A stretch of DNA of 64,000 nucleotides from an uncultured bacterium (GCA_963780225.1 CAWAAX010000026.1:13403-77402); one strand, 5' to 3'. Positions 8,170 through 30,493 are shown, counted from the stretch's first letter. Numbers and translations: made by a program. The notes: generated by a model not told the origin, from the sequence alone.

Positions 8170-9255
8170 ATGCCGGAAAAGACGGTTTATTCGCTGGCCA
8201 AGGTCCAGGTGCCGGAGCTGATCGCCAAACTGCTGAAGTCCCAGAACGAGGTCTGGGCTCCGGTGAAGGGCGAGGGAGGCGACACCTTTTTGTCGCAGAT
8301 CGACTCGGCCAAGCAGATAGCCCCTGAATACGTCAACGGATTCCTGGGGGCCAAGCGCTATGTGTTTCCGCAGCTGGAGGAGCTGTTCCGCTTCAAGAAG
8401 GGCAAGAACGGCACTACTCTGGAAACGGAATCCGGCCAACCCCGGGCGGTGATCTGGGGGATAAGGCCCTGCGACATGTCGGCGGTTAACTATTTCGACA
8501 GCTTCTTTGGTCAGGGCGCCAAGTCCGGCCCGGACTGGAAATCGGGCGATCCTCTGCCGGACCCGTTATACGAAAAGAGGCGGGAGCGGGCGGTGTTCAT
8601 CACCCTGGCCTGCAACCAGGCCGGGCCGAAATGCTTCTGCGTCTGCACCGATTCCGGTCCGTTCCTCTCCAAGGGTTTTGACATCCAGTTGACCGACCTG
8701 GGCACCTATTATCTGGTTGAGGTGGGGAGCCCCAAGGGAGATGAGTTCGTCAAGGAGTTCAAGACCCTGTTCGGCACCGGGAACGAGAACGATGTCAAGC
8801 TCCGCCGGAAGCTGGAAACTGAGGCCGAGAAGACTTTCCAGCAGCCGGTAAGTTTCTTTGCCAAGGCCATGCGCAAGCTGGACGGCGGCAAGGTGGACCA
8901 GAAGTTCTGGGAGAAGGTGGCCGGATACTGCATCGGCTGCGGCGGCTGCATCTACGTCTGCCCCATGTGCAGCTGCTTTGACGTGGACGACAAGATGGAT
9001 TCCGATACCGAGGGCCTGCGCTACCGGGCTTGGGACACCTGCGACTTTGCCGGGTTCACCCGCGAGGTCTCGGGACACAACCCCCGGGCCTCAAGGGCCG
9101 ACCGCCGGAAACGCTGGTTCTACCACAAGCTGTCCATGGACTATCTGGAAAAGAACCCGGTGATCGGCTGCGTGGGCTGCGGCCGCTGCGTGGTCACCTG
9201 CCCCGGCGAGGTGGACATGGCCACGGTGGTGAGGTGGATGCGGAAGGTCGAGTGA
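8170..9255 (+). CDS. 4Fe-4S cluster protein, sulfhydrogenase beta (HydB) / anaerobic sulfite reductase AsrA-like
   Basis: Three Cys clusters (CNQAGPKCFCVC, CIGCGGCIYVCPMCSCFD, CVGCGRCVVTCPG). It pairs with the downstream PyrK-like flavoprotein. Confidence 0.7.
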   Translation: MPEKTVYSLAKVQVPELIAKLLKSQNEVWAPVKGEGGDTFLSQIDSAKQIAPEYVNGFLGAKRYVFPQLEELFRFKKGKNGTTLETESGQPRAVIWGIRPCDMSAVNYFDSFFGQGAKSGPDWKSGDPLPDPLYEKRRERAVFITLACNQAGPKCFCVCTDSGPFLSKGFDIQLTDLGTYYLVEVGSPKGDEFVKEFKTLFGTGNENDVKLRRKLETEAEKTFQQPVSFFAKAMRKLDGGKVDQKFWEKVAGYCIGCGGCIYVCPMCSCFDVDDKMDSDTEGLRYRAWDTCDFAGFTREVSGHNPRASRADRRKRWFYHKLSMDYLEKNPVIGCVGCGRCVVTCPGEVDMATVVRWMRKVE

Positions 9256-9258
9256 CCT

Positions 9259-9866
9259 GGGTTGCCCACTAAAACCCACGAAAAGGACGAAAAATAATTC
9301 ATGGTTTCGATCGGGGTTGCCCACTAAAACCCACGAAAACATTTACCATTTAAAATTCAAGGTTGCCCACGAAAAACACTAAAAGGCACGGAACATTTAA
9401 ATTTTACGATGGCTTGAAAAAACGCGGATAAAGTATATGAAGGTCGAATTATTATATAAAGATGAGAGCTATGCCATAATAGGCGCATGTTTCAATGTGT
9501 ATAAAAATATGGGGAGCGGATTTTTAGAGCCAGTTTATCAGGAATGCCTGGAAATTGAATTCGAAAGACAAAAAATTCCATTTGAGCCGCAGAAAGAACT
9601 TGCCTTAAAATACCAGGATAGAACATTAAAGCAAAAGTATAAGCCGGACTTTGTTTGTTACGGCAAAATAGTGGTGGAGATAAAAGCGGTAGAAAAGATC
9701 ATTGATGATCACAGGTCACAAATGTTGAATTATCTTAACGCCACCGGTTTTAAATTGGGCTTGCTGGTAAATTTTGGCCACCACCCCAGGATGGAAAACG
9801 AAAGATTTATCCTTTAAATAAAAATCCCGCTGAGCAGAAAAAATATTTTTTCGTGTATTTAGTGGG
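9259..9866. mobile_element. Small low-GC cassette carrying a GxxExxY gene, bounded by inverted TTGCCCACTAAA motifs
   Basis: GGTTGCCCACTAAAACCCACGAAAA occurs as direct repeats at 9260 and 9314, with a variant at 9361. The inverted copy TTTAGTGGGCAA is at ~9853. The cassette is about 40% GC between ~62% GC genes. Confidence 0.4.
9437..9817 (+). CDS. GxxExxY family protein (PD-(D/E)XK-like small protein)
   Basis: 126 aa with ...GSGFLEPVYQECLEIEF... and KPDFVCYGKIVVEIKAVEKI, the typical GxxExxY architecture. Low GC. Confidence 0.75.
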   Translation: MKVELLYKDESYAIIGACFNVYKNMGSGFLEPVYQECLEIEFERQKIPFEPQKELALKYQDRTLKQKYKPDFVCYGKIVVEIKAVEKIIDDHRSQMLNYLNATGFKLGLLVNFGHHPRMENERFIL

Positions 9867-9887
9867 CAAAACCAAAAGTAAGAGCCT

Positions 9888-10724
9888 ATGAACCCCAATA
9901 TCTACCTACCATACATAGCCGAGATCACCGACATCAAGCAGGAGACCGGCGATACCCGGACCTACGATGTCAAAATAAAGAACAAGGACGAGGCCAAGCT
10001 GTTCGTCTCCCGGCCCGGCCAGTTCGTGGAGGCCTCGGTGTTCGGGGCCGGCGAGGCACCCTTCGGGCTGACCACTTCGCCCAGGGAGCCCGGGGTGATG
10101 ACCTTTACCGTGCGGGCTTGCGGCAAGGTGACCAACGCCCTAGCCGAAATGAAGAAGGGCGAAGAGATAGGCATCAAGGGTCCCCTGGGCAACAGCTTTT
10201 TGGACAAGATAGACTCCAAGGGCAAGGACATTCTGGTGATCGGGGGCGGCATCGGGCTTCCGCCGCTGCGCTCCATGATAGACCACATCTTCAACAACCG
10301 TTCGGACTACCGGGAGTTCACCATCCTCTACGGCGCCAGGACCCCGGCCGACCGGGTCTACAAATATCAGCTTACCGACTGGGAAAAGAAGACCGACCTC
10401 AAGCTGATCCAGACGGTGGACGTGGCCGACAAGGACTGGACCGGCAACGTGGGGGTGGTCACCACTTTGTTCCCCAAGCTGAAACTGGACATCCCCAACA
10501 CCGTGGTCTACACCTGCGGTCCGCCCATCATGATCAAGTTCGTGATAATCGAACTGCTCAAGCTGGGTCTGCCGGAGAAGCAGATCGTGTCCACCTTGGA
10601 GCGCTACATGAAGTGCGGGGTGGGGAAATGCGGGCACTGCTGCATCGGGAACAAGTACGTCTGCACCGACGGGCCGGTGTTCGATTATACCGAGATCAAG
10701 GGGCTGGCCGAAGAGGCGTTCTAA
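9888..10724 (+). CDS. FAD/NAD(P)-binding oxidoreductase with a C-terminal [2Fe-2S] (sulfhydrogenase gamma HydG / AsrB / PyrK-like)
   Basis: FNR-like fold (RPGQFVEASVFGAGEAPF, ILVIGGGIGLPPLRSM) and the C-terminal cluster motif CGVGKCGHCCIGNKYVC. Confidence 0.75.
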   Translation: MNPNIYLPYIAEITDIKQETGDTRTYDVKIKNKDEAKLFVSRPGQFVEASVFGAGEAPFGLTTSPREPGVMTFTVRACGKVTNALAEMKKGEEIGIKGPLGNSFLDKIDSKGKDILVIGGGIGLPPLRSMIDHIFNNRSDYREFTILYGARTPADRVYKYQLTDWEKKTDLKLIQTVDVADKDWTGNVGVVTTLFPKLKLDIPNTVVYTCGPPIMIKFVIIELLKLGLPEKQIVSTLERYMKCGVGKCGHCCIGNKYVCTDGPVFDYTEIKGLAEEAF

Positions 10725-10817
10725 CGATAGGGATTACGATAGGCCATACAATGGGGATTCGATAGCGATACAATTGCAGTCTCAATGTATAACCATCGTA
10801 TAGCAAAGGAAGCTATC

Positions 10818-11384
10818 GTGCTTGACCTGATAGAGTATCTCCGCTCCCTGAACCAAAACTCCCTGATCATCGGGGTGGGCAATCCCCTGAGGGGCGACGA
10901 CGGGTTCGGACCGGCATTGATAGCAGGGCTTAACGGACGGACCGGCATCAGGCTGATGGACGCCGAGGAGATCCCGGAAGCCTTTCTGGATCAGGCGGTC
11001 CAAATGGCCCCGGACAAACTGCTGATCGCCGACGCGGTGGCCCTGGGCGGCCTGCCGGGGGAAGCGGCCCTGATGCCGCCGGAATCGCTGGGGCAGAAGA
11101 TAGCCATCTCCACCCACAACCTGCCGCTGCTGATGTTCATCAAGTTCTTCCGGGAACAAAGCCCCAACACCGAGGTGATGCTGCTGGGGGTTCAGCCCAA
11201 GGGGATAGAGTTCGGGAAGGAGCTGAGCCCGGAGATAAGGAAGACCATAGACAGTTTGGTGGCAATCATACTGACAAGAAACCTAACAGAAGGGCAATTC
11301 TTAACGGTTCAAATGCATAATCATAATACCAAACAGTTTTTCTTTAAAAATTGTTATTCGAATGAGGGTTTGATATACAGTTAG
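10818..11384 (+). CDS. Hydrogenase maturation endopeptidase (HycI/HybD family)
   Basis: Signature LIIGVGNPLRGDDGFGPALI. I chose the GTG start at 10818, which has an AAAGGAAG RBS; the ORF track starts at 10785. Confidence 0.75.
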   Translation: MLDLIEYLRSLNQNSLIIGVGNPLRGDDGFGPALIAGLNGRTGIRLMDAEEIPEAFLDQAVQMAPDKLLIADAVALGGLPGEAALMPPESLGQKIAISTHNLPLLMFIKFFREQSPNTEVMLLGVQPKGIEFGKELSPEIRKTIDSLVAIILTRNLTEGQFLTVQMHNHNTKQFFFKNCYSNEGLIYS

Positions 11385-11427
11385 AATTTAAAATAATAAA
11401 ATAAACTCAATGATATAAGAAATATAT

Positions 11428-12882
11428 GTGTTACCAATTTTACTATTCACCATGCTGTTGCTGCCCTTTGCCGGGGCGCTGGTCTCGCAGTGGCTGCCGG
11501 AGAAGAGGCAGGACGGCTTTGCCGCAGTCATCGTCAGCCTGGTGACCGCGGCCTCGCTGTGGGCGGTATTCCTGGGGCTGGGCAAAAGCGTTCATTCCAA
11601 CGTCCTGCCTTGGTGGCCGTGGCTGCCTGAGGGCACTGAAGTGATGGGCCTCCATCTGGACCCGCTGTCCATAGTCCTGCTGCTGGTGACCACCATCATC
11701 GGACTGGCGGTGACCTTCTACGCCCGGGACTACCTTACCCCCCAGAACAAGTATCATCCCATTACAGGCGGCAAGAAACGCTTTTACCTGTGGCACCTGT
11801 TGTTCGTGGGCGCCATGGTGGGGGTGGCCCTGTCCCCCAACTTCCTCCAGATGTTCATCTTCTGGGAGCTGACCACCATCTGCTCCTGGGCCCTGATCTC
11901 CTACTACCACGACAGCGAGTCGCTGGAGGCCGGGTTCGAGGCGCTGATCAAGACCTTCTTCGGGGGCATCTTCTTCCTGATCGCCCTGATAGTGCTGTTC
12001 GTCAACACCGGCAGTTTCGGCTTCGACGCCATCAATCTTTTGACCCCCCAGCTGAAGACGGTGGTCTTCATCCTGTTCCTGATAGCGGCCTGGGCCAAGT
12101 CATCCCAGATAGTCTTCTTCGCCTGGCTGCCCAACGCCATGGCCGCGCCCACCCCGGTCTCCTGCTACCTGCACGCGGCCGCCATGGTCAAGGCCGGAGT
12201 TTATCTGATGGCCCGGGTGGCCATCTCCACCGTGGGCTTCTCCTACGGGCTGGGTCTTTTGGTGGCGGTGTTTGCGGTGTTCACCATGCTGGCCGCGCTG
12301 TTCCTGTTCTTCTTCCAGACCGATCTTAAAAAATTCCTGGCCTATTCCACCATCGCCCACCTGGGATACATCTTCCTGGGCATAGGGCTGGGGGTGATGG
12401 GCAGCTACTACGGCTACCAGGGGGCCATCCTTCACATCATCTGCCACGCCCCGGCCAAGGCCCTGCTGTTCATCTGCGTGGGGAACATAGCCTACGCCAC
12501 CGGCACCCGCAACATGGACGAACTGGGCGGCCTGACCAAGACCATGCCGCTGACCTCGATCGCCTTCATCGTGGGAACTTTGGGCGTCACCGGCATCGCC
12601 CCGCTTTCCTGCTACTGGTCAAAACTTTTCCTGATGGAGGGCGTGATAGAGATGGGCGGCAAGACGGCCGTCTTCCTGATCATCCCCTTCGTGGCCGAGA
12701 TCATCATCGCCTTCGCCTGGTATTTCTTCATCGCCCACAAGGTGTTCTTCGGCGAGGCCTCGCCCCGGGTGAACCAGGCCCTTAAACTGCCCATGAACAC
12801 CAAGGTCATCCTGATCGTGCTGATGGTGCTGACCGTGATCGCCCCGCTGGTGGGTTTGCCGCTGGTGAAGTTGATACGGTAA
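11428..12882 (+). CDS. Complex I / Mrp antiporter-like membrane subunit (NuoM/N, MrpD, HyfD-like)
   Basis: 484 aa and polytopic, with the conserved proton-pumping core (WLPNAMAAPTPVSCYLHAAAMVKAGVYL). Confidence 0.8.
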   Translation: MLPILLFTMLLLPFAGALVSQWLPEKRQDGFAAVIVSLVTAASLWAVFLGLGKSVHSNVLPWWPWLPEGTEVMGLHLDPLSIVLLLVTTIIGLAVTFYARDYLTPQNKYHPITGGKKRFYLWHLLFVGAMVGVALSPNFLQMFIFWELTTICSWALISYYHDSESLEAGFEALIKTFFGGIFFLIALIVLFVNTGSFGFDAINLLTPQLKTVVFILFLIAAWAKSSQIVFFAWLPNAMAAPTPVSCYLHAAAMVKAGVYLMARVAISTVGFSYGLGLLVAVFAVFTMLAALFLFFFQTDLKKFLAYSTIAHLGYIFLGIGLGVMGSYYGYQGAILHIICHAPAKALLFICVGNIAYATGTRNMDELGGLTKTMPLTSIAFIVGTLGVTGIAPLSCYWSKLFLMEGVIEMGGKTAVFLIIPFVAEIIIAFAWYFFIAHKVFFGEASPRVNQALKLPMNTKVILIVLMVLTVIAPLVGLPLVKLIR

Positions 12883-12961
12883 GCCCGACCCCTCCCTTGA
12901 TCCCTCCCCGTTGCGGAGAGGGATAAGTTAGTTCGGTAAGGTAAACAAAAGAGGAGAGAGT

Positions 12962-13981
12962 ATGCATCCTCGTCACTATGTTTTGGGCATGTTCGCGGTT
13001 TTGTTGGCTGTTTGTATGGCATGCCCGCTTAATGCACAAGTAAAACAGCAAGGGACAAAGCAAACTGTTACGGCCAAGCCGGAAACGGTTTACGTGCAGG
13101 CAATCCAGCCAGAAAATACGAAGCAATTGGATAGAACAATAAGTGTTCTTAATATAATTATAACTGCAATTGGTGTTTTAGGTACAATCGTTACGTTGGC
13201 CTTTATGGTTGCAATTGCTCTAGGTTTTTTTGAAATAAACAAGTGGAGGGAGATTAGAGTACAAGCGGAGCAGCATAAAAAAGATGTGCAACAATGCCTT
13301 GAAGATATAAAAAAATATCTAGCTGTTGCAAAACAAGACAAAGACGAAATTAAAAAGACAAAGGAAGAAGCCGACGCTCTAATTGTGGGAATAAAACAAC
13401 TTTCGTTAAAGGAAAAACCATCGAAAGAAGTCAAGGCAAAGCTTGATGAATATGGGAAAAAGATAGAAATGCTTGAAGCCTTGGGTAGCCCATTGACGCC
13501 GGAAAATTATTATAACAAGGGAATTGACTTTTACTACAAAAGCAAATATGAGGTAGCTCTGAGTGCCTTTGAGAAAGCCATAGAACTTAAACCTGTATTT
13601 GCTCAAGCTTGGTGCAACAAAGGTGTCGTACTCAGTGAACTTGGGAATAACGAAGAAGCACTCAAAGCCCATGAGAAGGCCATAGAACTAAATCCAAATT
13701 ATGCCAACGCCTGGGACAATAAGGGCATTGTACTAAGCAAGCTGAAACGATATGGAGATGCACTTAAAGCACATGAGAAAGCAATAGTGATAAAGCCAGA
13801 TTTTGTAAATGCCTGGTTTAATAAGGCTTGTGTTTATTCATTAATGGGCGATAAGCAAAATTCCCTTATAAGTTTAAGCAAAACAATAAAGTTGGATTCT
13901 ACACGCAAAGAAGACGCAAAAAGTGACGAAGATTTTAAGACCCTATGGACAGACCCTGATTTTATAAAACTTGTAAGTTAA
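12962..13981 (+). CDS. TPR-repeat protein with an N-terminal signal/TM and a coiled coil; a low-GC insertion inside the hydrogenase operon
   Basis: Four or five TPR units (AWCNKGVVLSELGNNEEALKAHEKAIELNP, etc.). About 40% GC. Confidence 0.75.
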   Translation: MHPRHYVLGMFAVLLAVCMACPLNAQVKQQGTKQTVTAKPETVYVQAIQPENTKQLDRTISVLNIIITAIGVLGTIVTLAFMVAIALGFFEINKWREIRVQAEQHKKDVQQCLEDIKKYLAVAKQDKDEIKKTKEEADALIVGIKQLSLKEKPSKEVKAKLDEYGKKIEMLEALGSPLTPENYYNKGIDFYYKSKYEVALSAFEKAIELKPVFAQAWCNKGVVLSELGNNEEALKAHEKAIELNPNYANAWDNKGIVLSKLKRYGDALKAHEKAIVIKPDFVNAWFNKACVYSLMGDKQNSLISLSKTIKLDSTRKEDAKSDEDFKTLWTDPDFIKLVS

Positions 13982-13994
13982 ATTAAAGATACAT

Positions 13995-16043: not shown

Positions 16044-16133
16044 AACCTTAGACGGGATTAACATGATTTTCAAAACTTGGAGGTTAACTTCGACAGAAGA
16101 TCATCAATCAACAAGATTCTTTGGAGAAACATA

Positions 16134-16397
16134 ATGAAACTCCGGCTGGCATTAGTGGTCTTAGCGATGATGTTTACCAGTGCCTACGCTGATTTTGCGG
16201 AAGATTCTACAGCAGCACAACCGGTCGTACAGAAAACCACCGATTCATTACGGCAGTCGAATACTTGGCCCGGCACATATCATATTTGCTCTGTTGGACT
16301 GGGGAAGTACAGCCCGCGTCCGTACTTTTCGTATACGCCAGTCGGGATAAAGAACTGCTCAATGTCTTGCCGGAATCCAGTATTCGTCTGGTTTTAG
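16134..16397 (+). CDS. Small secreted hypothetical protein
   Basis: GGAG RBS and the signal peptide MKLRLALVVLAMMFTSAYA. No homology is recognisable. Confidence 0.3.
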   Translation: MKLRLALVVLAMMFTSAYADFAEDSTAAQPVVQKTTDSLRQSNTWPGTYHICSVGLGKYSPRPYFSYTPVGIKNCSMSCRNPVFVWF

Positions 16398-16891
16398 GTA
16401 TGGCCGTGACCGACAGGGTAGACCTGCTGGCGAACATTGACGGAGGGTATTTGCAGTGTGGGACTAAGCACCGGGTACGTTTCACCGCACAATTTCAGGC
16501 TCAGGCCTTGGGATCCGGTATAATTTTGGATCACGACAGGTGGATGTTTCCATACATTGCGCCTAATGTTGCCGAGGCGATTCTGAGATGAGGTACAGCA
16601 ACTAAGAATTATTCATTCATGTTTATTGCAAATAGGATTCGTACGGAGAACTGAGAAGCCACCTGGTATTAGCTGCGGATCGAGATACGCGGGGACTGAT
16701 ATCCGGCCGTGCACAATCATTTTACGCAAGCCGGATGAAATGGCTGTTAGGGATTTCTACGAATGGCGGTATAATTCATCATATATTGCAAGATACTTAT
16801 AATGAAGGGCAAGAGGTTCCAATAATGCTTTGCAGACAGTTAACCTTTCAACAATGGCAACATAAAGCAACATCTTAAACAAAGGGATACA

Positions 16892-18208
16892 ATGACCAAA
16901 CAGGAAATACTCTCTTTACTAAAGGCCAAGCTGGGCACCGGATTCATCGCCCACAGCGAGCCTATTCCCGACCAGCTGTGGGTGGAGGTCAAGCCCCAGG
17001 CCTCGGTCCAGGCCGTGGAGATACTGCACCGCACCACCAAGGCCCGCTATCTGGTGAGCGTGGGCTCGGACGAGCGGGAGCTAAAGAAGCGCTTCGGGGT
17101 CTACCACCTGTTCAGCTTTGACAAAGAACACTTCTTCGTCACCATCGACGTCTCGGCCGACCCCCACAAGCCGGTGCTGCCCTCCATCACCAACGTCATC
17201 GCCGGGGCCAACTGGTCGGAGCGGGAGATCCGCGATCTGTTGGGCGTGCAGTTCGAGGGCCATCCCGATCCCCGGAGATTAGTTCTGGCCGATGACTGGC
17301 CGAACGAGGTCTATCCGCTGCGCCGGGACTTCGACTACAGTTCCAAGCCGCCCTCCAACCCGGAGAACGCCTATCCCTTCAAGGACAACCCGCCCAACAC
17401 CACGGTGGTGGCCATGGGGCCGTATTTCCCGGTGTTCGAGGAAGCCACCTATTTCCGGCTGTACGTCGAGGGCGAAAAGGTGGTGGACGTGGACTACCGC
17501 GGATTTTACGCCCACCGGGGCATAGAAAAACTGGGCGACGCTTCGCTGACCTACAACCAGATACCCTTCATCGCCGAGCGGATCTGCGGTATCTGCGGCT
17601 TCGTCCACAACGTCTCCTTCTGCAAATTAGTGGAACACGCGGCCGGGATCAAGGTCCCGCGCCGGGCCGACTACATAAGAACCATCATGCTGGAGCTGGA
17701 GCGCATCCATTCCCACGCCCTGTGGCTGGGGGTGGCCGGGCACATCATCGGCTTTGACACCGTGCTGATGCAGACCTGGCGGATGCGGGAGCCCATCATG
17801 TGGCTGTGCGAAAAGCTGACCGGCAACCGCAAGACCTACGGCATGAACCTGATCGGCGGGGTGCGCCGGGACATCACCAAGGCCCAGGTGCCCGAGGTCC
17901 GCAAAAAGATCGACGCCATGGACAAGGAATGGCAGGCGGTGCTGGACGCCGTCAAGGACGACACCACATTAAGAATGAGATTAGAGAAGGTGGGGATCCT
18001 CAACCGCGAGCAGAGCCACGAGTGGGCGGCAGTGGGCCCGGTGGCCCGGGCGGCCGACATCGACATGGACTCCCGCAAGGACCATCCCTACTGCGCCTAC
18101 GACGCGGTGGATTTCAAGGTGATCACCGCCGACACCAACGACGTCTGGGGCCGGACCGTGGTCCGGATCCTGGAAACAATCGAATCGTTCAAGATCGTCC
18201 GCCAATGA
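16892..18208 (+). pseudogene. Truncated tandem duplicate of the 5' 1.3 kb of the hydrogenase large-subunit gene
   Basis: 16892-18205 is near-identical to 18205-19518, with a few synonymous or conservative differences. The junction ..GTCCGCCA|ATGACCAAACAGG creates a TGA, so the copy ends before the C-terminal Ni-binding motif. Confidence 0.7.
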
Positions 18209-19884
18209 CCAAACAGGAAATCCTCTCTTTACTAAAGGCCAAGCTGGGCACCGGATTCATCGCCCACACCGAGCCTATTCCCGACCAGCTGTGGGTGGAG
18301 GTCAAGCCCCAGGCCTCGGTCCAGGCCGTGGAGATACTGCACCGCACCACCAAGGCCCGCTACTTAGTGAGCGTGGGCTCGGACGAGCGGGAGCTAAAGA
18401 AGCGCTTCGGGGTCTACCACCTGTTCAGCTTTGACAAAGAACACTTCTTCGTCACCATCGACGTCTCGGCCGATCCCCACAAGCCGGTGCTGCCCTCCAT
18501 CACCAACGTCATCGCCGGGGCCAACTGGTCGGAGCGGGAGATCCGCGATCTGCTGGGCGTGCAGTTCGAGGGCCATCCCGATCCCCGGAGATTAGTTCTG
18601 GCCGATGACTGGCCGAACGAGGTCTATCCGCTGCGACGGGACTTTGACTACAGCTCCAAACCGCCCTCCAACCCGGAGAACGCCTATCCCTTCAAGGACA
18701 ACCCGCCCAACACCACGGTGGTGGCCATGGGGCCGTATTTCCCGGTCTTTGAAGAGGCCACTTACTTCCGGCTGTACGTCGAGGGCGAGAAGGTGGTGGA
18801 CGTGGACTACCGCGGATTTTACGCCCACCGGGGGATAGAAAAACTGGGCGACGCTTCGCTGACCTACAACCAGATACCCTTCATCGCCGAGCGGATCTGC
18901 GGCATCTGCGGCTTCGTCCACAACGTCTCCTTCTGCAAGCTGGTGGAGCACGCGGCCGGGATCAAGGTCCCGCGCCGGGCCGATTACATCCGGACCATCA
19001 TGCTGGAGCTGGAGCGCATCCATTCCCACGCCCTGTGGCTGGGGGTGGCCGGGCACATCATCGGCTTCGACACCGTGCTGATGCAGACCTGGCGGATGCG
19101 GGAGCCCATCATGTGGCTGTGCGAAAAACTGACCGGCAACCGCAAGACCTACGGCATGAACCTGATCGGCGGGGTGCGCCGGGATATCACCAAAGCCCAG
19201 GTGCCCGAGGTCCGCAAAAAGATCGACGCCATGGACAAGGAATGGCAGGCGGTGCTGGACGCCGTCAAGGATGATACCACATTAAGAATGAGGCTGGAGA
19301 AGGTGGGGATCCTCAACCGCGAGCAGAGCCACGAGTGGGCGGCGGTGGGCCCGGTGGCCCGGGCGGCCGACATCGACATGGACTCCCGCAAGGACCATCC
19401 CTACTGCGCCTACGACGCGGTGGACTTCAAGGTGATCACCGCCGACACCAACGATGTCTGGGGCCGGACCGTGGTCCGGATCCTGGAGACCATCGAATCG
19501 TTCAAGATCGTCCGCCAGTGTCTGGACGCTTTAATGGAACTGCCGGAGGGCGACATCATCACCGAGATCCGGGACGAGATCCCGGCCGGGCGGATAGCCA
19601 TCTCGGCTGTCGAAGCGCCCCGGGGCGAGGACGTCCACTTCCTGCTGACCGGCGGAGACAACCGGCCCTACCGCTGGCGGGTGCGGTGCCCAACATATCC
19701 CAACTTGCCCACCGTGCAGGTGATGGTCAAGGGCGAGCAGGTGGCCGACGTGCCGATCATCCTGGGCTCCATCGATCCCTGCTTCAGCTGCACCGAGCGG
19801 ATGGAGGTCTGCGACCTGTCAACAGGCAAGGTCAGGATCTACAGCCAGGAGGAACTGTTTAACTGGACCGCCAAGCGCAGTTAG
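18205..19884 (+). CDS. hyfG: [NiFe]-hydrogenase large subunit, group 4, with fused NuoC-NuoD domains (HyfG/HycE-like)
   Basis: 559 aa. The N-terminus is NuoC-like (WSEREIRDLLGVQFEGHPD). It carries the proximal Ni-binding motif RICGICGFVH and the distal motif DPCFSCTERMEV. Confidence 0.85.
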   Translation: MTKQEILSLLKAKLGTGFIAHTEPIPDQLWVEVKPQASVQAVEILHRTTKARYLVSVGSDERELKKRFGVYHLFSFDKEHFFVTIDVSADPHKPVLPSITNVIAGANWSEREIRDLLGVQFEGHPDPRRLVLADDWPNEVYPLRRDFDYSSKPPSNPENAYPFKDNPPNTTVVAMGPYFPVFEEATYFRLYVEGEKVVDVDYRGFYAHRGIEKLGDASLTYNQIPFIAERICGICGFVHNVSFCKLVEHAAGIKVPRRADYIRTIMLELERIHSHALWLGVAGHIIGFDTVLMQTWRMREPIMWLCEKLTGNRKTYGMNLIGGVRRDITKAQVPEVRKKIDAMDKEWQAVLDAVKDDTTLRMRLEKVGILNREQSHEWAAVGPVARAADIDMDSRKDHPYCAYDAVDFKVITADTNDVWGRTVVRILETIESFKIVRQCLDALMELPEGDIITEIRDEIPAGRIAISAVEAPRGEDVHFLLTGGDNRPYRWRVRCPTYPNLPTVQVMVKGEQVADVPIILGSIDPCFSCTERMEVCDLSTGKVRIYSQEELFNWTAKRS

Positions 19885-19942
19885 AAACGGTTTGAAACTG
19901 TTGGAAATGGTTTGAAATGTTTACAATTTACGAAGGGGTGGA

Positions 19943-20329
19943 GTGATGACGATAAAGAATTTTGAAGATCTAAAAATATGGCAAGTAGCCAAACAGTTAA
20001 CAAAACAGGTTTATTCGGCAGTCAACTTACAGAAATATAACCGGGATTATTCACTGGTTGACCAGACAAGGCGGGCATCGGTTTCAATCATGGCCAATAT
20101 CGCTGAAGGTTTTGAAAGGGAGAACAACAAGGAGTTCATTCAATACTTGTATATTGCCAAAGGATCTTGCGGGGAGTTGAGGAGCCATTTGTGGATCGCT
20201 CAGGAATTGATGTTTCTGACCGAGGTTGAAGGTAAAACTTTAAGAGAAGAAGCTGCCGGGCTATCAATCATGATTGCAAAGTTGATAATGTACCTAAAAA
20301 CCTCGCCCATTAAGGGATTCAAACAGTAA
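19943..20329 (+). CDS. Four-helix-bundle protein (23S rRNA intervening-sequence protein / Avd-like family), copy 1
   Basis: 128 aa with ..RDYSLVDQTRRASVSIMANIAEGFER..EFIQYLYIAKGSCGELRSHL... About 40% GC. It lies in the spacer between hyfG and the NuoH-like gene. Confidence 0.85.
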   Translation: MMTIKNFEDLKIWQVAKQLTKQVYSAVNLQKYNRDYSLVDQTRRASVSIMANIAEGFERENNKEFIQYLYIAKGSCGELRSHLWIAQELMFLTEVEGKTLREEAAGLSIMIAKLIMYLKTSPIKGFKQ

Positions 20330-20339
20330 GGGTGGTTTA

Positions 20340-21230: not shown

Positions 21231-21242
21231 TATTAAACAGAT

Positions 21243-21715
21243 AGTTTACAATTTACAGTTTAAAAGTTTGTTTGAATAACGCAAGGAGGTTTGTATGGGT
21301 ACGTTCAGAAAGTTTGAGGACATTACCGCTTGGCAAAAAGCGCGCGAGTTGACAAAGTTGGTTTACGAAATCACTAAGGACGGAAGTTTTTCAAAGGATT
21401 TTGGCCTGCGAGATCAAATAAGAAGAGCCGCTGTTTCTATGATGTCCAACATTGCAGAAGGGTTTGACAGGGGCGGCAGAAAAGAATTTATTCAGTTTTT
21501 ATCAATAGCCAAAGGCTCCACTGGCGAGGTCAAAAGCCAATTGTATATCGCATTGGACCAAAATTACATTACCAAAGATTTATTCGATAAAACATTTTCC
21601 TTGGCAGAGGAAGTCAATCGTTTGATCTTTAGTTTGATAAAGTACCTGGGAAATACTGAAATTAAGGGAATAAAATATAAAGTTAACTGATTACAATAAC
21701 TGTAAATTGTAAACA
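21243..21715. mobile_element. Four-helix-bundle gene cassette (copy 2), flanked by inverted repeats
   Basis: AGTTTACAATTTACAG at 21243-21258 and its inverse CTGTAAATTGTAAAC at 21701-21715 bracket the 4HB ORF. A related GTTTACAATTTACG lies upstream of copy 1 at 19921. Confidence 0.4.
21295..21690 (+). CDS. Four-helix-bundle protein (23S rRNA IVS/Avd-like), copy 2
   Basis: 131 aa with ..KDFGLRDQIRRAAVSMMSNIAEGFDR..EFIQFLSIAKGSTGEVKSQL.., a paralogue of copy 1. Confidence 0.85.
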   Translation: MGTFRKFEDITAWQKARELTKLVYEITKDGSFSKDFGLRDQIRRAAVSMMSNIAEGFDRGGRKEFIQFLSIAKGSTGEVKSQLYIALDQNYITKDLFDKTFSLAEEVNRLIFSLIKYLGNTEIKGIKYKVN

Positions 21716-21733
21716 ATACAACTGTAAACCGAT

Positions 21734-22201: not shown

Positions 22202-22360
22202 GGAGCTCGAAATAGGGCAAGGCGATGATGGAACTGCTGGGCAAGAGAGCGATACTATACGATAGAGGAGGCCGAAACAGGGGCAAGGCGATGATGGAGT
22301 TGTCAGACAAGTATGCGACAATATACGATGGGGTAAGTACGAAATAGGGCTGGACAAGGT
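22199..22360. repeat. About 2.5 tandem copies of a ~66-bp unit
   Basis: GAGGAGCTCGAAATAGGGCAAGGCGATGATGGAACTG...ATACGATA is followed by GAGGAGGCCGAAACAGGGGCAAGGCGATGATGGAGTTG...ATACGATG and a partial third copy. Confidence 0.55.
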
Positions 22361-22387
22361 TTAAAACGATGAAAACAATAAGATGAG

Positions 22388-22750
22388 GTGAGTATGGAAT
22401 TGAAATTCGAGAAACTGGAAGTATGGCGGATATCGCTGGAATGCATAGATAAGGTCTATGCGCTTTTGGAAAAATATCCCCGGTCCGAAGAATATATCCT
22501 AAAACAGCAAGGCAAGCGCTCCATAACCTCGGTCTCTCTGAACATTGCCGAAGGCAGCTGCAAGCACACCCAAAGGGAATTTGCCTATTTTGTAAATATT
22601 TCCATAGGCTCCCTGGTGGAAACCCTGGCCAATCTGAAAATAGGTCTGCAAAGAAAATACATCACTGACGCAGACTTTAAAGGCATTGAGCCCTTGCTGG
22701 ATAAAATGTATTTCAAGCTGATGGCTCTGGAAAAGGCCCTGCGGAAATAG
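22388..22750 (+). CDS. Four-helix-bundle protein (23S rRNA IVS/Avd-like), copy 3 (more diverged)
   Basis: 120 aa with ..KRSITSVSLNIAEGSCKHTQREFAYFVNISIGSLVETLANL... Low GC. Confidence 0.8.
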   Translation: MSMELKFEKLEVWRISLECIDKVYALLEKYPRSEEYILKQQGKRSITSVSLNIAEGSCKHTQREFAYFVNISIGSLVETLANLKIGLQRKYITDADFKGIEPLLDKMYFKLMALEKALRK

Positions 22751-22970
22751 TTTCCAAACTATCGGTGCGCCGCTTTTATCATTGCATCTCCAACGTTAAT
22801 CATTGCCGAACATTCATGACGGGCTTCTCAAACGTGAAAACGTTGCCGGGCTTAAATGGCTGGCATCTCAAACACCGCGCGGCGTTTAGTAAGGGCATCT
22901 CAATCGTTGCATTGCTTTTAGTTTTGCTTCTCAAACATCAAACCCAATTTATTAGCTTATAGGTCAAAGT

Positions 22971-23701: not shown

Positions 23702-24178
23702 ATGATAGATAAAAACATCCTTAAAAGCATCTCGCTGTTTTCCGATTTTTCGGACAAGGAGATCGGGAAAATTGCAGCCCTTTTTTCCGAGCGGTCCTTC
23801 AAGGAAAACGAGGTGCTGATACCGGAGCAGTCCGAGAACCGGGAGCTGATGATACTCTTGGAGGGCAGCGTGGCGGTGGAGGTGGGATTGAGCCTTTCGG
23901 CCAGCGCCGAAAAACTGATGCTGACCTCGGAGGACAATCCCGGGCGGATCATCGAATGGTCCTCGGCCATCGACACCACCAAAAGCGGCGGCACCGCCTC
24001 GGCCCGGGCCTTAAAGCCCACCAAAGTGCTGGTGGCCGACGGGCAGGCTTTGGTCAGCCTTTTTAAATCCGAGAAGGAACTGGGTTACAAAATGATGCAC
24101 AAGATCCTGCTGGTGATAGCCTCCCGGCTGAAGGACACCCGGCTGCAGCTGATCAGCATGGCGGCGCAGTGTCGGTAA
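23702..24178 (+). CDS. Stand-alone cyclic-nucleotide-binding (CAP effector-like) domain protein
   Basis: 158 aa with ..LFSDFSDKEIGKIAALFSERSFKENEVLIPEQSENRELMILLEGSVAV.., as expected for a cNMP-binding beta-roll. No HTH. Confidence 0.6.
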   Translation: MIDKNILKSISLFSDFSDKEIGKIAALFSERSFKENEVLIPEQSENRELMILLEGSVAVEVGLSLSASAEKLMLTSEDNPGRIIEWSSAIDTTKSGGTASARALKPTKVLVADGQALVSLFKSEKELGYKMMHKILLVIASRLKDTRLQLISMAAQCR

Positions 24179-25897: not shown

Positions 25898-26015
25898 CTA
25901 CGGCAAGGTGGACCCCTCCCTTGATCCCTCCCCGAAACGGAGAGGGAAAAGGTGTGAAATGGCCCGGTAGCACGAAATAAATCCAAATAAAACCAATATA
26001 CAATGGACAGATGAT

Positions 26016-27270: not shown

Positions 27271-27753
27271 ATGTTCCTGAAAAAACTTTGCGCCAAGGCC
27301 TTCCCCAAGTCGCTGTGGATCTATCACGTCAACACCGGGTCCTGCAACGGCTGTGACATCGAGATCGTGGACGTGATCACCCCCTATTACGACGCCGAGC
27401 GCTTCGGGATCAAGCTGGCCGGAAGCCCCCGCCACGCCGACATCATGCTGGTGTCCGGGCCGGTGACCAGGCAGGCCCTGCCGTCCTTAAAGCGGGCCTA
27501 CGAGGCCATCCCCGACCCCAAGATCGTGATCGTGGTGGGCTCCTGCGGGGCCGGCGGCAACCTGTGGTTTGACACCTATAACGTCACCGGCGGGGTGGAC
27601 AAGGTGATCCCGGTCAACTACTACATCCCGGGCTGCCCGCCCCGGCCCGAGGCCATCCTCTACGGCGTGGCAGTGGCCCTGGGGCTGGCCCCCAAGAAGG
27701 TTAAGGGCGAGGAGTCGGTGGAAGGGCCGATAAGGGAGGGAATGTGGAAATGA
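27271..27753 (+). CDS. hyfI: [NiFe]-hydrogenase small subunit, NuoB-like (HyfI/HycG/EchC-type)
   Basis: Four Cys for the proximal 4Fe-4S cluster (SCNGCD, GSCGAGG, GCPPRP). 160 aa. Confidence 0.85.
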   Translation: MFLKKLCAKAFPKSLWIYHVNTGSCNGCDIEIVDVITPYYDAERFGIKLAGSPRHADIMLVSGPVTRQALPSLKRAYEAIPDPKIVIVVGSCGAGGNLWFDTYNVTGGVDKVIPVNYYIPGCPPRPEAILYGVAVALGLAPKKVKGEESVEGPIREGMWK

Positions 27754-28667
27754 AACAACTGAATGCAAAATGCAAAATGCAAATAGCAAAAGGCCAAGGG
27801 ATCCATTTTGGTAAATTTGCAATTTACACTTTAATATTTTCACTTTGCATTGTCGGCTTTGCCGGTTGCGGAAACATCTCCCGGGGCAGCCTCAGCCAGG
27901 AAGCGGTGAAGATGGCGGTGCTGCCGGCCTATTCCACCGCTTTGACCGGCCAAAAATACCTGCCGCTGCTTAACTATCTCTCCCGGGAGACCGGTTACGA
28001 GGTCCAGTACATCTGGGGGCAGAGTTACGCCGGGCTGGGCGCAGCCATCGAGACCTCGGGGGCGGACTTCGTGATCTGCGATCCCTTGTCCTATCTGACC
28101 CTGCAGAAGACCCACCGGGCCAGACCGCTGGTGATCAGCGCTGTGTCCCTTGGCCGGACCGAAACGCAGGGCCTGATCTTCGTCCCGCAGGGTTCGGACA
28201 TCGCCGGTCCTTCAGCCCTTAAAGGCAAATTAGTGGCCATAGCGTCCATGCAGTCCTCCGATGGTTTTTTATCCCAGGCCTGCTACCTTAGATCTCTGGG
28301 CCTTTTGCCGGGAAGGGATTACCGGCTGTTGATCTGCGGCACCATGGATGAAGTGGTCAAAAAAGTGGCCGAAGGCAAGGCCCAGGCAGGTTTCGGCGGA
28401 ACAGGAATTCTGGACCAGTTGATGGCCGAAAAGCTGGTCTCCCTGGCCAGCACCGATCCGGTGCCGGGCTGGCTGTGCCTGAGCCTGAAGGGCGATAATT
28501 ACGAGGTGGAGGAAAAACTGACCCAGGCTTTCCTGCGGCTCAGTCAGGAGAATCCTGAACAGAAAAAGATACTGGACGGGCTGGGGTATTACGGTTTTGC
28601 CAGCCCGCAAGGTGCAGATATCAACGGTCTGGCGGAAAAGGCCCGGAGTCTGAACGTTCCATTCTAA
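27744..28667 (+). CDS. Periplasmic binding protein, PhnD/SsuA-like (type II PBP) lipoprotein
   Basis: Signal peptide ending ..FAGCGN, then ..MAVLPAYSTALTGQKYLPLLNYLSRETGYEVQYIWGQSYAGLGAAIETSGADFVICDP.. Confidence 0.55.
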   Translation: MEMKQLNAKCKMQIAKGQGIHFGKFAIYTLIFSLCIVGFAGCGNISRGSLSQEAVKMAVLPAYSTALTGQKYLPLLNYLSRETGYEVQYIWGQSYAGLGAAIETSGADFVICDPLSYLTLQKTHRARPLVISAVSLGRTETQGLIFVPQGSDIAGPSALKGKLVAIASMQSSDGFLSQACYLRSLGLLPGRDYRLLICGTMDEVVKKVAEGKAQAGFGGTGILDQLMAEKLVSLASTDPVPGWLCLSLKGDNYEVEEKLTQAFLRLSQENPEQKKILDGLGYYGFASPQGADINGLAEKARSLNVPF

Positions 28668-28705
28668 AGTGATCCTAATATCCCGACCAATAACATAAAG
28701 ATGAT

Positions 28706-30493
28706 ATGAAACAGACCTTTACCATTTGCCCCCATTGCGGCTGCGGCTGCGGCCTTTATCTGGTTCAGCAGGATGGCCGGACCGGAGGAGTGACCGCCAG
28801 CCAGGAACACTATTTTTCGGCCGGGCAGCTTTGCGCCCGGGGCTGGACCGGTTATCAGTTGTTATGGTCGCCGCTCCGGATAAAGACCCCGCTCTACAAG
28901 AAGAACGGCGGGCTGGCTCCCATCGGCTACGACAAGGGGCTGGAGGCCGCGGCCAAGAAGCTCAGATCCATCAAGGAAAAGCACGGCCCCCAGAGCATCG
29001 GGGTCATCGCCTCCTCCCGGCTGACGGTGGAGGAAGCCCAGGCCCTGCGCTCGTTCGCCAAAGACATTCTGGAAACCCCGAATTGCGACAGCGCCGCCCG
29101 GCTTGGGTACCTGCCGATGGAATTCCCGAAAACAGCCGCCACCACTGACATTGCCGGAGCCGACCTGATCCTGGTGCTGGGCGCAAACCTGATGGAAGAG
29201 AACCCCATGCTGGGGGCCAGGGTGGTCTCGGCCTGCAAGCCTGAGGCCGACCGGCCCTATCAGTCGGCCGACCTGAACCACGTCATCGCCGGCAAGCCGG
29301 CCCGGCTGGCGGTGATGGACAGCCGCAAAAGCGCGCTGGCCGGTGCGGCGGAATTGTTCCTGAAGACCGTTCCCGGCAATGAGGCCGGGGCGCTGCTGGC
29401 CCTGCTTAAAGTATTGATCGAAAAATACCAGATGGAATCCAAGGATCCGGCCTTCCGCAAGGTCAAGGAAGCCTTGGCCAAGATGACCTGGGAGAACCTG
29501 CTGTCCAACACCGGGCTGGTGCTGCCGGGCCTGGAGCAGCTGGGGGCCATGATCGCCTCCGCCAAGGCTCCGATGTTGATCTTCGGCCGCAGCCTGTTCA
29601 CCGGCCACGATGCGGCGGCGGCCCGCTCGGCCCTGGCCGGCCTGTCGCTGCTTCTGCCGGAAAAACTTTCGGTGCTTCAGGCCGCCGCCGCCGCCAACGA
29701 CTGGGGGTGCGCCCGGATCCTGCATCCGGACAAGGGCCAAGGCTATCTGGAGATGATGGAATCATTAACCTCCGGGAAACTAAAAGCCCTGGTGCTGGTG
29801 GGCGAGGACCCCCTGAAGACGCTGGGCGGAAAAGAGGGGGTTTCCCAGGCCCTGGCCCAGGCCGAGCTGGTGGTGGCCTTCGATCATTTTGTCTCCGAGA
29901 GCCATCAGTACGCCGAAGCGGTATTCCCGCTGGCCCTGTCCTTTGAAAAGGAAGGCTCGTTCTGCAACCTGGACGGTAAAAGGCAGAAATTCGAGCAGGC
30001 GCTCAAGCCGGAATTTGAGATCAAATCCCTGGAGGATTCCTTGAAGGCCATGGCATCAGTGATCGGCGGAAAACTGGATCCCAAGGATGAACTTACCCAG
30101 CCGGCCAAGGCCGGGTGGGATGCGGCCTTCGATCTGTCCAAAGCGGCTCCCCAGGGCTTTGTGCTGGAACTGGGCACGGCCTATCCCCATCTTTACGGGG
30201 ACGACCAGCTGACCTTCAACAGCTATCACCTGACCCGCGAATTTGCAGGCAACTACGTGGAACTGCATCCCGATGACATCAAGGAACTGGGGGTCAGGGC
30301 GGGATGGAAGATCAATGTCACTTCAGCTGCCGGAAGCCTGGTGGCCACGGCCCGGGCCAATCCCGATCTGGTGAAAAAGACCGCCTTCATGCCGGTCCAC
30401 TTCGGCGGCAACCTGCTGGCCCCGGCCAAGCCCAACCACCACCTGAAGACCCCGCAGCTGAGGGGCATCGCGGTCAAGATAGAGAAGACCTGA
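28706..30493 (+). CDS. Molybdopterin-oxidoreductase family protein, FdhF (formate dehydrogenase H)-like, apparently without the catalytic Cys/Sec
   Basis: The N-terminal 4Fe-4S motif (CPHCGCGCG...LCARGW) aligns with FdhF as far as KTPL and IKEKHGPQSIG. At the position of FdhF's VCH/VUH the sequence reads NCDSAARLGY. At 595 aa it is shorter than FdhF (715 aa). Confidence 0.7.
   Translation: MKQTFTICPHCGCGCGLYLVQQDGRTGGVTASQEHYFSAGQLCARGWTGYQLLWSPLRIKTPLYKKNGGLAPIGYDKGLEAAAKKLRSIKEKHGPQSIGVIASSRLTVEEAQALRSFAKDILETPNCDSAARLGYLPMEFPKTAATTDIAGADLILVLGANLMEENPMLGARVVSACKPEADRPYQSADLNHVIAGKPARLAVMDSRKSALAGAAELFLKTVPGNEAGALLALLKVLIEKYQMESKDPAFRKVKEALAKMTWENLLSNTGLVLPGLEQLGAMIASAKAPMLIFGRSLFTGHDAAAARSALAGLSLLLPEKLSVLQAAAAANDWGCARILHPDKGQGYLEMMESLTSGKLKALVLVGEDPLKTLGGKEGVSQALAQAELVVAFDHFVSESHQYAEAVFPLALSFEKEGSFCNLDGKRQKFEQALKPEFEIKSLEDSLKAMASVIGGKLDPKDELTQPAKAGWDAAFDLSKAAPQGFVLELGTAYPHLYGDDQLTFNSYHLTREFAGNYVELHPDDIKELGVRAGWKINVTSAAGSLVATARANPDLVKKTAFMPVHFGGNLLAPAKPNHHLKTPQLRGIAVKIEKT

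Follow-up and report, generated by a model that had tools for sequence, protein, structure and literature searches.

A group 4 [NiFe]-hydrogenase gene cluster with a predicted NAD(P)H module and a degenerate FdhF-like protein in an uncultured bacterium

Introduction

The closest described relatives of the system reported here are gene clusters of HydDB group 4b that combine a formate dehydrogenase (Fdh)-like protein lacking Cys/Sec (selenocysteine) with homologues of the gamma and beta subunits of the hydrogenase SHI, and that were recognized in silico (Takano et al., 2026, Front Microbiol, PMC13582414). CxxU and UxxU selenocysteine variants ([NiFeSe]) occur in one large subclade of these 4b enzymes, and AlphaFold models join the Cys/Sec-less Fdh, the SHI-gamma/beta homologues and the hydrogenase in one complex, with a modelled Fe-S network whose three arms end at the large subunit, SHI-gamma and the Fdh-like protein (PMC13582414). 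[quoted passage not shown] Here we analyse such a cluster at positions 8170-30493, plus strand, of a 64,000-nucleotide stretch of DNA from an uncultured bacterium (GCA_963780225.1 CAWAAX010000026.1:13403-77402), which we refer to as the window.

The cluster is a genuine, intact member of a conserved hydrogenase type that has been described from genomes alone. We read 8170-30493 as a single operon encoding a group 4 [NiFe]-hydrogenase that is membrane-bound, translocates ions and has an NAD(P)H module, and assign this reading a probability of roughly 60%. The identities of the subunits, their cofactor motifs, the loss of catalytic residues in the molybdopterin-family (MopB) protein and the conserved synteny were observed directly.

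Results and discussion

An intact hydrogenase cluster

Twelve core open reading frames (ORFs) of the plus strand were typed by Pfam and NCBIfam families with E-values from 1e-10 to 1e-148. Their products comprise three Proton_antipo_M proteins, a fused Complex1_30kDa+49kDa/NiFeSe_Hases protein, single members of NADHdh, Oxidored_q2 and Oxidored_q6, a 2x[4Fe-4S] protein, a Fer4_22 protein, an FAD/NAD/2Fe-2S protein, a HycI protease and the MopB protein. The resulting backbone order is HydB-HydG-HycI-D-B-G-C-H-E-F-I-MopB, where single letters denote Hyf-like subunits, and all 12 ORFs are intact with their motifs kept. Those for the Hyf-like subunits D, B, G, C, H, E, F and I encode 484, 682, 559, 296, 155, 220, 508 and 160 amino acids (aa), and those for HydB, HydG, HycI and MopB encode 361, 278, 199 and 595 aa. 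The subunit sizes quoted in the initial annotation, which was made from the sequence alone, match these ORFs exactly, and the Escherichia coli sizes set beside them were also correct.

The large subunit, with its Complex1_49kDa and NiFeSe_Hases domains, carries both nickel-binding motifs in their Cys form, RICGICGFVH (residues 230-239) and DPCFSCTER (524-532). Its C terminus extends 27 aa beyond the Arg of the second motif, and such a tail after the C-terminal CxxC, with a HycI gene close by, is the arrangement expected of a HycI-processed enzyme. The best solved relative is E. coli HycE (7z0s_E, full length, 448 bits, vs 257 bits for MbhL). The features that define group 4 are all in place, namely the L1 and L2 CxxC motifs in a NuoD-like fold together with NuoB-, NuoI-, NuoH- and antiporter-like subunits, and the initial annotation was right to call this a true group 4 [NiFe]-hydrogenase and not a relic of complex I.

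Transcription as one unit is consistent with the lack of convincing internal terminators (16 terminator-like matches vs 21 expected from shuffled sequence). Two weak sigma-70-like promoter matches lie upstream of the first gene (HydB-like).

Gene order and class assignment in a survey of relatives

We compared the window with 83 related loci in genomes of more than 15 phyla, including Acidobacteriota, Gemmatimonadota, Planctomycetota, Verrucomicrobiota, Spirochaetota, Armatimonadota, Aminicenantes, Chloroflexota and KSB1. The nearest proteins are 98% identical and come from six contigs of the same species group (L001-L006); the next nearest are at 84-87% (L007, L011, L087), after which identity drops to 57% or less. 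The recurrent order across the survey is MopB-HydB-HydG-HycI-(HyfD)-HyfB-HyfG-HyfC-HyfH-(HyfE-HyfF)-HyfI, with a short form that has one antiporter-like subunit and a long form that has three plus HyfE. The order D-B-G-C-H-E-F-I is therefore the norm of the clade, and the sole rearrangement in the lineage of the window is the move of MopB from the 5' to the 3' end. The initial annotation had listed the genes in their correct sequence, D-B-G-C-H-E-F-I followed by the MopB gene, but was mistaken in calling this order scrambled. A complete short form, MopB-HydB-HydG-HycI-HyfB-HyfG-HyfC-HyfH-HyfI, is found in a cultured organism, Chitinibacter tainanensis DSM 15459 (L049, NZ_KE386951.1), whose large subunit is 50% identical to that of the window.

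The group 4a label given initially is doubtful, because the large subunit is only 41% identical to HycE and 38% to HyfG of E. coli, as against 50-57% to the clade that combines HydB/HydG with a degenerate MopB protein. Relatives at 48-53% identity include CxxU and UxxU variants from Chloroflexota, Armatimonadota, KSB1 and Desulfobacteraceae. In-frame TGA codons at one or both N-terminal CxxC Cys positions were found in eight loci (L022, L023, L026, L028, L031, L043, L063 and L082), which probably ties the clade of the window to the group 4b subclade of Takano et al. (2026). Judged by these sequence comparisons, assignment to group 4b in the sense of HydDB is likely.

The HydB/HydG-like pair

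The two genes at the 5' end encode a poly-[4Fe-4S] subunit and a flavoprotein with FAD, NAD(P) and [2Fe-2S] domains (Table 1). The sole PDB relative of the HydB-like protein at E<=0.001 is the beta subunit of Pyrococcus furiosus SHI (9nez_B, 9.9e-37) and the best PDB match of the HydG-like protein is the gamma subunit of the same enzyme (9nez_C, 8.4e-47), in both cases over the full length. Profile matches bear out the sulfhydrogenase beta/gamma-like pair and the HycI protease that had been noted at the 5' end. The HydB-like protein matches ShyB (8.7e-50) and HydB (7.6e-46) below their equivalog cutoffs, and scores of the pair against the HydB/HydG and ShyB/ShyC models are 157-170 bits vs cutoffs of 600-750, so that the two proteins are homologues by domain content and length and not equivalogs.

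The AsrA and AsrB models also match the pair (3.4e-34 and 3.2e-62), again below their cutoffs, and a GxxExxY gene lies between the two ORFs. Both facts would suit an AsrAB-type sulfite or sulfur reductase unit, unrelated to the hydrogenase genes and merely adjoining them. An ORF for AsrC or a siroheme subunit is not present in the window, however, and in 68 of the 83 loci, spread over many phyla, HydB and HydG adjoin the hydrogenase genes, directly between MopB and HycI (MopB itself is there in 59 of the 83); most of the loci without the pair are incomplete contigs. In the window the two genes share the strand of the operon without an intervening terminator, and the GxxExxY gene that separates them is one of the strain-variable inserts and does not occur in L007 or L011. 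We therefore reject a separate sulfite reductase on synteny and the missing AsrC, leaving it the barest of chances. The initial annotation had made its interpretation depend on the pair belonging to the hydrogenase cluster, and its conserved place beside the hydrogenase genes makes it integral to that cluster.

A formate dehydrogenase-like protein without its catalytic residues

The MopB protein had been annotated as FdhF, in a complex that might couple formate or NAD(P)H to H2. Its best family and PDB matches are formate dehydrogenases, NuoG models (1e-35) and NuoG chains match as well, and its score against the Fdh-alpha model TIGR01591 is 227.6 bits vs a cutoff of 666. HMMER alignments place the motif ARLGY at the site where solved formate dehydrogenases have ARxC/U-H. 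In an alignment of the window protein with 47 members of the clade and E. coli FdhF, the columns of FdhF Sec140, His141 and Arg333 hold Gly, Tyr and Ala in the window protein and are highly variable among its relatives (G, Y, H, W, S, I, V and others), the [4Fe-4S] cysteines C8, C11, C15 and C42 are invariant, and the residue equivalent to FdhF Lys44, beside the FeS cluster, stays Arg or Lys. The Cys/Sec-His pair is missing in 45 of 45 alignable MopB proteins linked to HydB/HydG, and the single canonical Fdh among the relatives belongs to a cluster without HydB/HydG (L022, Dehalococcoidaceae). Between genomes whose large subunits are approximately 53-56% identical, MopB proteins share only approximately 28-31%.

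With the Sec/Cys-His-Arg catalytic residues lost, formate is an unlikely substrate. A classical formate hydrogenlyase of the hydrogenase-4 type (group 4a), in which the 595-aa protein is FdhF and formate the donor, would explain the Hyf-like subunit set, the HycI protease and the formate dehydrogenase matches. We reject it on the active-site residues of the MopB protein, and the low Fdh-alpha score and the modest identity of the large subunit to HyfG and HycE also speak against it, as do the accessory genes: E. coli HyfA, HycB, HycH and HyfJ queries gave no tblastn match at E<=1e-3 in the whole window (the initial annotation, too, had seen no HyfA), and neither a FocA/B channel nor an FhlA/HyfR regulator is among the family assignments of the window. 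This alternative is largely refuted at the level of sequence, and we consider it very improbable.

NuoG of complex I carries a MopB domain without cofactor. By analogy, the protein of the window looks like a relic that has kept only its Fe-S cluster site, similar to the MopB domain of NuoG, and its role is most likely that of a NuoG-like Fe-S or scaffold subunit.

Membrane arm, proposed mechanism and energetics

Among the E. coli proteins, each antiporter-like subunit of the window is most similar to its own namesake (HyfB, HyfD or HyfF), in agreement with the Hyf-like membrane arm originally proposed. In all three the Glu of transmembrane helix (TM) 5 and the Lys residues of TM7, TM8 and TM12 are kept, aligned to E144, K234, K265 and E407 of NuoM, and because these residues are retained the three putative ion channels look competent.

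We infer the nucleotide partner, the direction of the reaction, the coupling to ions and the role of MopB from these assignments. NAD(P)H would donate electrons to the HydG-like subunit, first to its FAD and then to its [2Fe-2S] cluster; from there they would travel along the [4Fe-4S] chain of the HydB-like subunit (three clusters, which would replace HyfA/HycB), and through HyfH and HyfI to the Ni-Fe centre, or in reverse. HyfC/HyfE and HyfB/D/F would couple this redox reaction to the movement of protons or sodium ions. At low H2 the membrane potential would help to drive H2 evolution from NAD(P)H, and at high H2 the oxidation of H2 would reduce NAD(P)+ and pump ions, so that direction would be set by H2 pressure and membrane potential.

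Several points weigh against this proposal. NAD(P)H-driven H2 production is endergonic under standard conditions, and a reaction of approximately 18 kJ/mol can hardly account for three pumping modules, unless these work in reverse or a third substrate takes part. The HydB/HydG-like proteins lie so far below the NCBIfam equivalog cutoffs that their nucleotide specificity and use of NAD(P)H are predictions, and the literature searched yielded no biochemical study of any member of the clade. The strict co-conservation of MopB could mean that it has a catalytic role at another site, and molybdoenzymes without a protein ligand to Mo exist (arsenite oxidase). Finally, the second copy of a partly duplicated large-subunit gene (see below) has no ribosome-binding site of its own and, if the duplication is real, expression may be impaired.

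Some of the same points favour an electron-confurcating or -bifurcating hydrogenase, with or without ion translocation, in which MopB binds a cofactor and acts on a third substrate, as proposed by Takano et al. (2026). The three-armed Fe-S network of the AlphaFold models (PMC13582414) suits such an enzyme, as do the joint presence of MopB and HydB/HydG in 59 of 83 loci and the Arg or Lys kept at the position of FdhF Lys44, and a third, low-potential substrate would ease the energetics of pumping on NAD(P)H alone. The columns for the Mo ligand, His and Arg are, however, highly variable, unlike a conserved active site, MopB diverges far more than the large subunit, and candidate substrate-related genes are not conserved nearby in the surveyed loci. 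Because the would-be active-site columns are variable, we rank bifurcation below an ion-translocating NAD(P)H-linked hydrogenase and think it unlikely, if well worth keeping in mind.

Table 1. Features of the hydrogenase operon and its upstream region (positions in the window; strain-variable, present in some strains only; lineage-conserved, shared by the near relatives).
Feature	Position	Strand	Evidence
Sigma-70-like promoter match 1	7939-7967	+	10/12 positions, TG extension; consensus scan only, weak
Sigma-70-like promoter match 2	8068-8097	+	9/12 positions; consensus scan only, weak
HydB/ShyB-like poly-[4Fe-4S] subunit, sulfhydrogenase beta-like, 361 aa	8170-9255	+	Fer4_22 1.4e-27; Cys clusters in translation
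GxxExxY/PDDEXK_3 protein, 126 aa, strain-variable	9437-9817	+	PF13366 3e-41; TIGR04256 2e-41; GC3 0.43
HydG/ShyC/AsrB-like FAD + NAD(P)-binding + [2Fe-2S] subunit, 278 aa	9888-10724	+	FAD_binding_6, NAD_binding_1, DHODB_Fe-S_bind
HycI-type maturation endopeptidase, 199 aa	10785-11384	+	PF01750 1.6e-15; TIGR00072 1.2e-30, over cutoff; 29% to E. coli HycI
HyfD-like antiporter-like subunit, 484 aa	11428-12882	+	NF005097 494 bits, over 430 equivalog cutoff; 37% to E. coli HyfD
TPR protein, N-terminal signal/TM region, 339 aa, strain-variable	12962-13981	+	TPR families; GC3 0.35
HyfB-like (NuoL-like) antiporter-like subunit, 682 aa	13995-16043	+	NF005086 2e-130; 33% to E. coli HyfB
Low-GC spacer, degraded four-helix-bundle (IVP) remnant and small signal-peptide ORF	16044-16889	+	GC 0.45
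Copy 1 of tandem duplication, 5' 1311 nt of large-subunit gene	16890-18204	+	ORF 16892-18208, 438 aa, without C-terminal CxxC
HyfG/HycE-like fused NuoC-NuoD [NiFe] large subunit, 559 aa	18205-19884	+	Both CxxC motifs, C-terminal extension
IVP1, four-helix-bundle/23S-rRNA-IVS protein, strain-variable	19943-20329	+	PF05635 3.7e-33; TIGR02436; GC3 0.49
HyfC/HycD/NuoH-like membrane subunit, 296 aa	20340-21230	+	PF00146 2.4e-52; 35% to HycD
IVP2, strain-variable	insert 21241-21717, ORF 21295-21690	+	PF05635 5.9e-37
HyfH/HycF/NuoI-like 2x[4Fe-4S] subunit, 155 aa	21734-22201	+	Fer4 families; NF006076, NF009053 ~1e-27
IVP3, strain-variable	22388-22750	+	PF05635 4e-24
HyfE-like (NuoK-like) membrane subunit, 220 aa	22971-23633	+	NF008556 1e-29; PF00420
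Stand-alone cNMP-binding-domain protein, 158 aa, lineage-conserved	23702-24178	+	PF00027 1e-6; GC3 0.78, host-like
HyfF-like antiporter-like subunit, 508 aa	24371-25897	+	NF005044 4.6e-86; 34% to E. coli HyfF
LivJ/K-type solute-binding lipoprotein (Peripla_BP_6), 386 aa	26016-27176	+	PF13458 2e-47; lipobox ...FSGC; GC3 0.86
HyfI/HycG/NuoB-like small subunit, 160 aa	27271-27753	+	PF01058 8.5e-30; 51% to HycG; [4Fe-4S] cysteines present
PhnD-like solute-binding lipoprotein, 307 aa	27744-28667	+	PF12974 2e-43; lipobox ...FAGC; start overlaps hyfI end
Degenerate FdhF-like MopB protein, 595 aa	28706-30493	+	Molybdop_Fe4S4, Molybdopterin, Molydop_binding

Interleaved inserts and lineage-conserved genes

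Interleaved with the core genes are nine further ORFs on the same strand, six of them low-GC, strain-variable inserts and three lineage-conserved genes; the initial annotation had passed over these, as it had the degraded IVP remnant and the tandem duplication within the large-subunit gene. G+C content at third codon positions (GC3) is 0.35-0.56 in the strain-variable inserts, 0.67-0.86 in the lineage-conserved extras and 0.80-0.91 in the core. Slots with small same-strand genes occupy almost every gap of the operon (9256-9887, 12883-13994, 16044-16889, 19885-20339, 21231-21733 and 22202-22970), and the variable inserts differ between assemblies that are approximately 90% identical in DNA.

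The slot between HyfD and HyfB holds the TPR gene in the window and an unrelated 178-aa ORF in L001-L006, and the one between HyfG and HyfC holds IVP1 in the window and is empty in L001-L006. Between HyfC and HyfH, L007 has a methyltransferase. IVP3, in the HyfH/HyfE slot, is present in L002, L005 and L006 and absent from L001, L003, L004 and L007. Within the spacer that follows hyfB, positions 16565-16889 align with the 3' part of an intact IVP gene of L001, the tblastn match carrying in-frame stops. A GxxExxY gene 65% identical to that of the window lies between HyfH and HyfI in L057 (Verrucomicrobiota).

In L001-L004 an NTase-HEPN pair fills the slot between HyfF and the LivJ-type gene. The pair is flanked in L001 by a 43-nt direct repeat without mismatches (17244-17286 and 18124-18166; L002 is alike), which corresponds to the 5' coding region of the LivJ-type gene, and a second, divergent lipoprotein signal peptide lies upstream. 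Insertion at this site thus came with a duplication of the 5' end of the downstream gene, resembling the hyfG duplication of the window. A 53-nt repeat (85% identical, at 12875-12927 and 25899-25951) follows directly on the hyfD and hyfF stop codons and precedes the TPR gene and the LivJ-type gene; it contains a CCCTCCCC...GGAGAGGG hairpin and could be a REP-like or attenuator-like element.

IVP2 is bracketed by a 20-nt inverted repeat with 95% complementarity (21241-21260/21698-21717; score 17 vs a maximum of 10 in shuffled sequence), and inverted repeats also flank the GxxExxY gene (9363-9384/9848-9869 and 9262-9273/9858-9869). Such flanks are clear for these two inserts of the window only, and we rejected them as a general property of the inserts; RNA duplex z-scores are weak. 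The inserts so bracketed might be cassettes that resemble rRNA intervening sequences and are cut out of the mRNA. Rfam gave no RNA family in the whole window, PADLOC had no match for the IVP or GxxExxY proteins, and the literature searched held nothing useful on four-helix-bundle or GxxExxY genes inside operons.

The cNMP-binding gene occupies the same slot in L001-L007 and L011, and similar small cNMP-only proteins flank long-form clusters in Acidobacteriota. The LivJ-type and PhnD-like genes are both found in L001-L004, L007 and L011, and a PhnD-like homologue of 34% identity lies between HyfF and HyfI in L022. Both binding proteins have lipoprotein signal peptides and would thus be extracytoplasmic; neither gene has ABC permease or ATPase genes adjacent to it.

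A partial duplication of the large-subunit gene

A tandem partial duplication of 1313 bp, with copies at 16890-18204 and 18203-19517 that are approximately 97% identical, places a truncated large-subunit gene before the full-length one. Of the 42 nucleotide differences between the copies, 36 fall on third codon positions, and the differing codons are synonymous in 37 cases and non-synonymous in one. The junction shows only the microhomology 'CA'; the TGA that ends copy 1 shares bases with the ATG that opens copy 2 (ATGA), and copy 2 is left without its own ribosome-binding site. L001-L007 and L011 lack the duplication, which was not found in any related contig, JGI metagenome contigs do not contain the 33-nt junction (a lone 20-nt match is unrelated and due to chance), and searches turned up no record of truncated and full-length products.

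As 37 of the 38 differing codons are synonymous, we rejected an old pseudogene formed in place as the origin of the duplicate. The copies diverged as functional alleles in separate genomes. Two origins fit the duplication: a chimera of strains in the assembly, or recombination with a sibling strain that took place very recently and left a homologous and an illegitimate junction.

The inserts and the truncated duplicate could also be taken to mark pseudogenization of a decaying, non-functional locus. In its favour are the seven compositionally foreign segments in the intergenic gaps and the 438-aa truncated copy, which removes the ribosome-binding site of the catalytic gene behind it. Yet the 12 core ORFs are intact, and when independent assemblies with different inserts are compared, the core genes are 84-94% identical at the DNA level and reach 98% as proteins. 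The large subunit is 98% identical to that of L001 in protein but 94% in DNA, and the core genes therefore appear to be under purifying selection. Neither copy of the duplication, moreover, has drifted as a pseudogene would. We consider decay improbable.

Genes around the operon

Beyond the 3' end of the operon lie gatE (31156-33120) and gatD (34454-35839), which score over the NCBIfam equivalog thresholds for GatDE, the Glu-tRNA(Gln) amidotransferase of the archaeal type. An archaeal origin suggested by these genes was rejected, as the window is otherwise bacterial, with LepA, signal peptidase I, ScpA and an ECF sigma factor. A YhcG-type PD-(D/E)XK nuclease gene (33318-34220), which matches the PADLOC candidate defence system PDC-S02, splits gatE from gatD in the same kind of insertion as those in the operon. 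Directly downstream, 36022-42929 encodes PAS-GGDEF-EAL, GAF-GAF-HD and CHASE2-adenylate/guanylate cyclase proteins; any relevance of the CHASE2 cyclase to the cNMP-binding protein of the operon is speculative. A two-gene match to the PADLOC candidate PDC-M21A/B (AbiEii-like nucleotidyltransferase toxin) lies immediately upstream of lepA, at 56049-57259.

Significance

This type of cluster is widespread and already known from genomes, and the enzyme class is biochemically uncharacterized. If the operon encodes what we propose, many uncultured and soil or sediment phyla, including Acidobacteriota, Gemmatimonadota, Verrucomicrobiota, Planctomycetota, Spirochaetota, Aminicenantes and UBP2, would exchange NAD(P)H and H2 directly through an ion-translocating complex, which would change models of fermentative redox balance and H2 cycling. 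The MopB protein would then be an extant example of a formate dehydrogenase subunit turned into a scaffold without cofactor, as happened in complex I. For annotation, 'FdhF' beside such hydrogenases is not evidence of formate metabolism, and 'AsrA/AsrB' is not evidence of sulfite reduction. Chitinibacter tainanensis DSM 15459 offers a tractable cultured organism in which to test the predicted NAD(P)H-linked activity.

A bolder picture, which we put forward tentatively and hold to be doubtful as a whole, is that the clade is the H2-linked counterpart of complex I, a pumping or proton motive force-driven NAD(P)H:H+ oxidoreductase and a surviving intermediate on the way from formate hydrogenlyase to complex I. 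In the lineage of the window it would be tied to cyclic-nucleotide sensing and to the two binding lipoproteins. Separately, the gaps of the operon would be landing pads for cassettes resembling rRNA intervening sequences, with four-helix-bundle, GxxExxY and toxin-antitoxin or defence genes, some of them enclosed by inverted repeats and perhaps removed at the RNA level.

Comparison with known systems

Canonical group 4b enzymes, the Mrp-linked, formate- or CO-respiring hydrogenases such as Mfh2-Mnh2 of Thermococcus, have a full Mrp-type antiporter module, whereas profile scans of the window gave no small MnhB/C/E/F/G-like families and, as membrane proteins, only the three Proton_antipo_M, the NADHdh and the Oxidored_q2 members. 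The beta and gamma subunits of P. furiosus SHI (9NEZ) align with the HydB/HydG-like pair over their full length and share its FeS, FAD and NAD(P) domains, but there they serve a cytosolic group 3b alpha/delta dimer, whereas here the pair accompanies a membrane-bound group 4 enzyme.

Hydrogenase-4 of E. coli (HyfABCDEFGHIJ, formate hydrogenlyase-2) and hydrogenase-3 (Hyc, 7Z0S) share with the window the fused NuoCD subunit with its HycI-processed extension and the NuoB- and NuoI-like subunits, and hydrogenase-4 also shares HyfC, HyfE and three antiporter-like subunits that match HyfB, HyfD and HyfF one to one. Identity is only 33-51% per subunit, however, the gene order is another one, the window has an NAD(P)H-type beta/gamma module in place of a functional FdhF partner, and it is without HyfA/HycB, HyfJ/HycH, HyfR and FocB.

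Complex I (Nuo) has in common with the cluster its antiporter-like pumps, the homologues NuoH, NuoK and NuoB/C/D/I, a nucleotide-oxidizing flavoprotein module and an Fdh-derived domain without molybdopterin chemistry. In contrast to complex I, the window has an intact Ni-Fe centre and not a quinone pocket, a flavoprotein of the SHI-gamma/PyrK type and not NuoEF, and a MopB protein that is a separate polypeptide.

The 4b-type clusters of Takano et al. (2026) differ from the window in the position of the MopB gene, which is 3' here and not 5', and the window adds an embedded cNMP-binding protein, two solute-binding lipoproteins, strain-variable foreign genes in the gaps and a partly duplicated large-subunit gene. 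What the two share is the core gene set: the large and small subunits, HyfC- and HyfE-like proteins, several antiporter-like subunits, the Cys/Sec-less Fdh-like protein and the homologues of SHI-beta and SHI-gamma.

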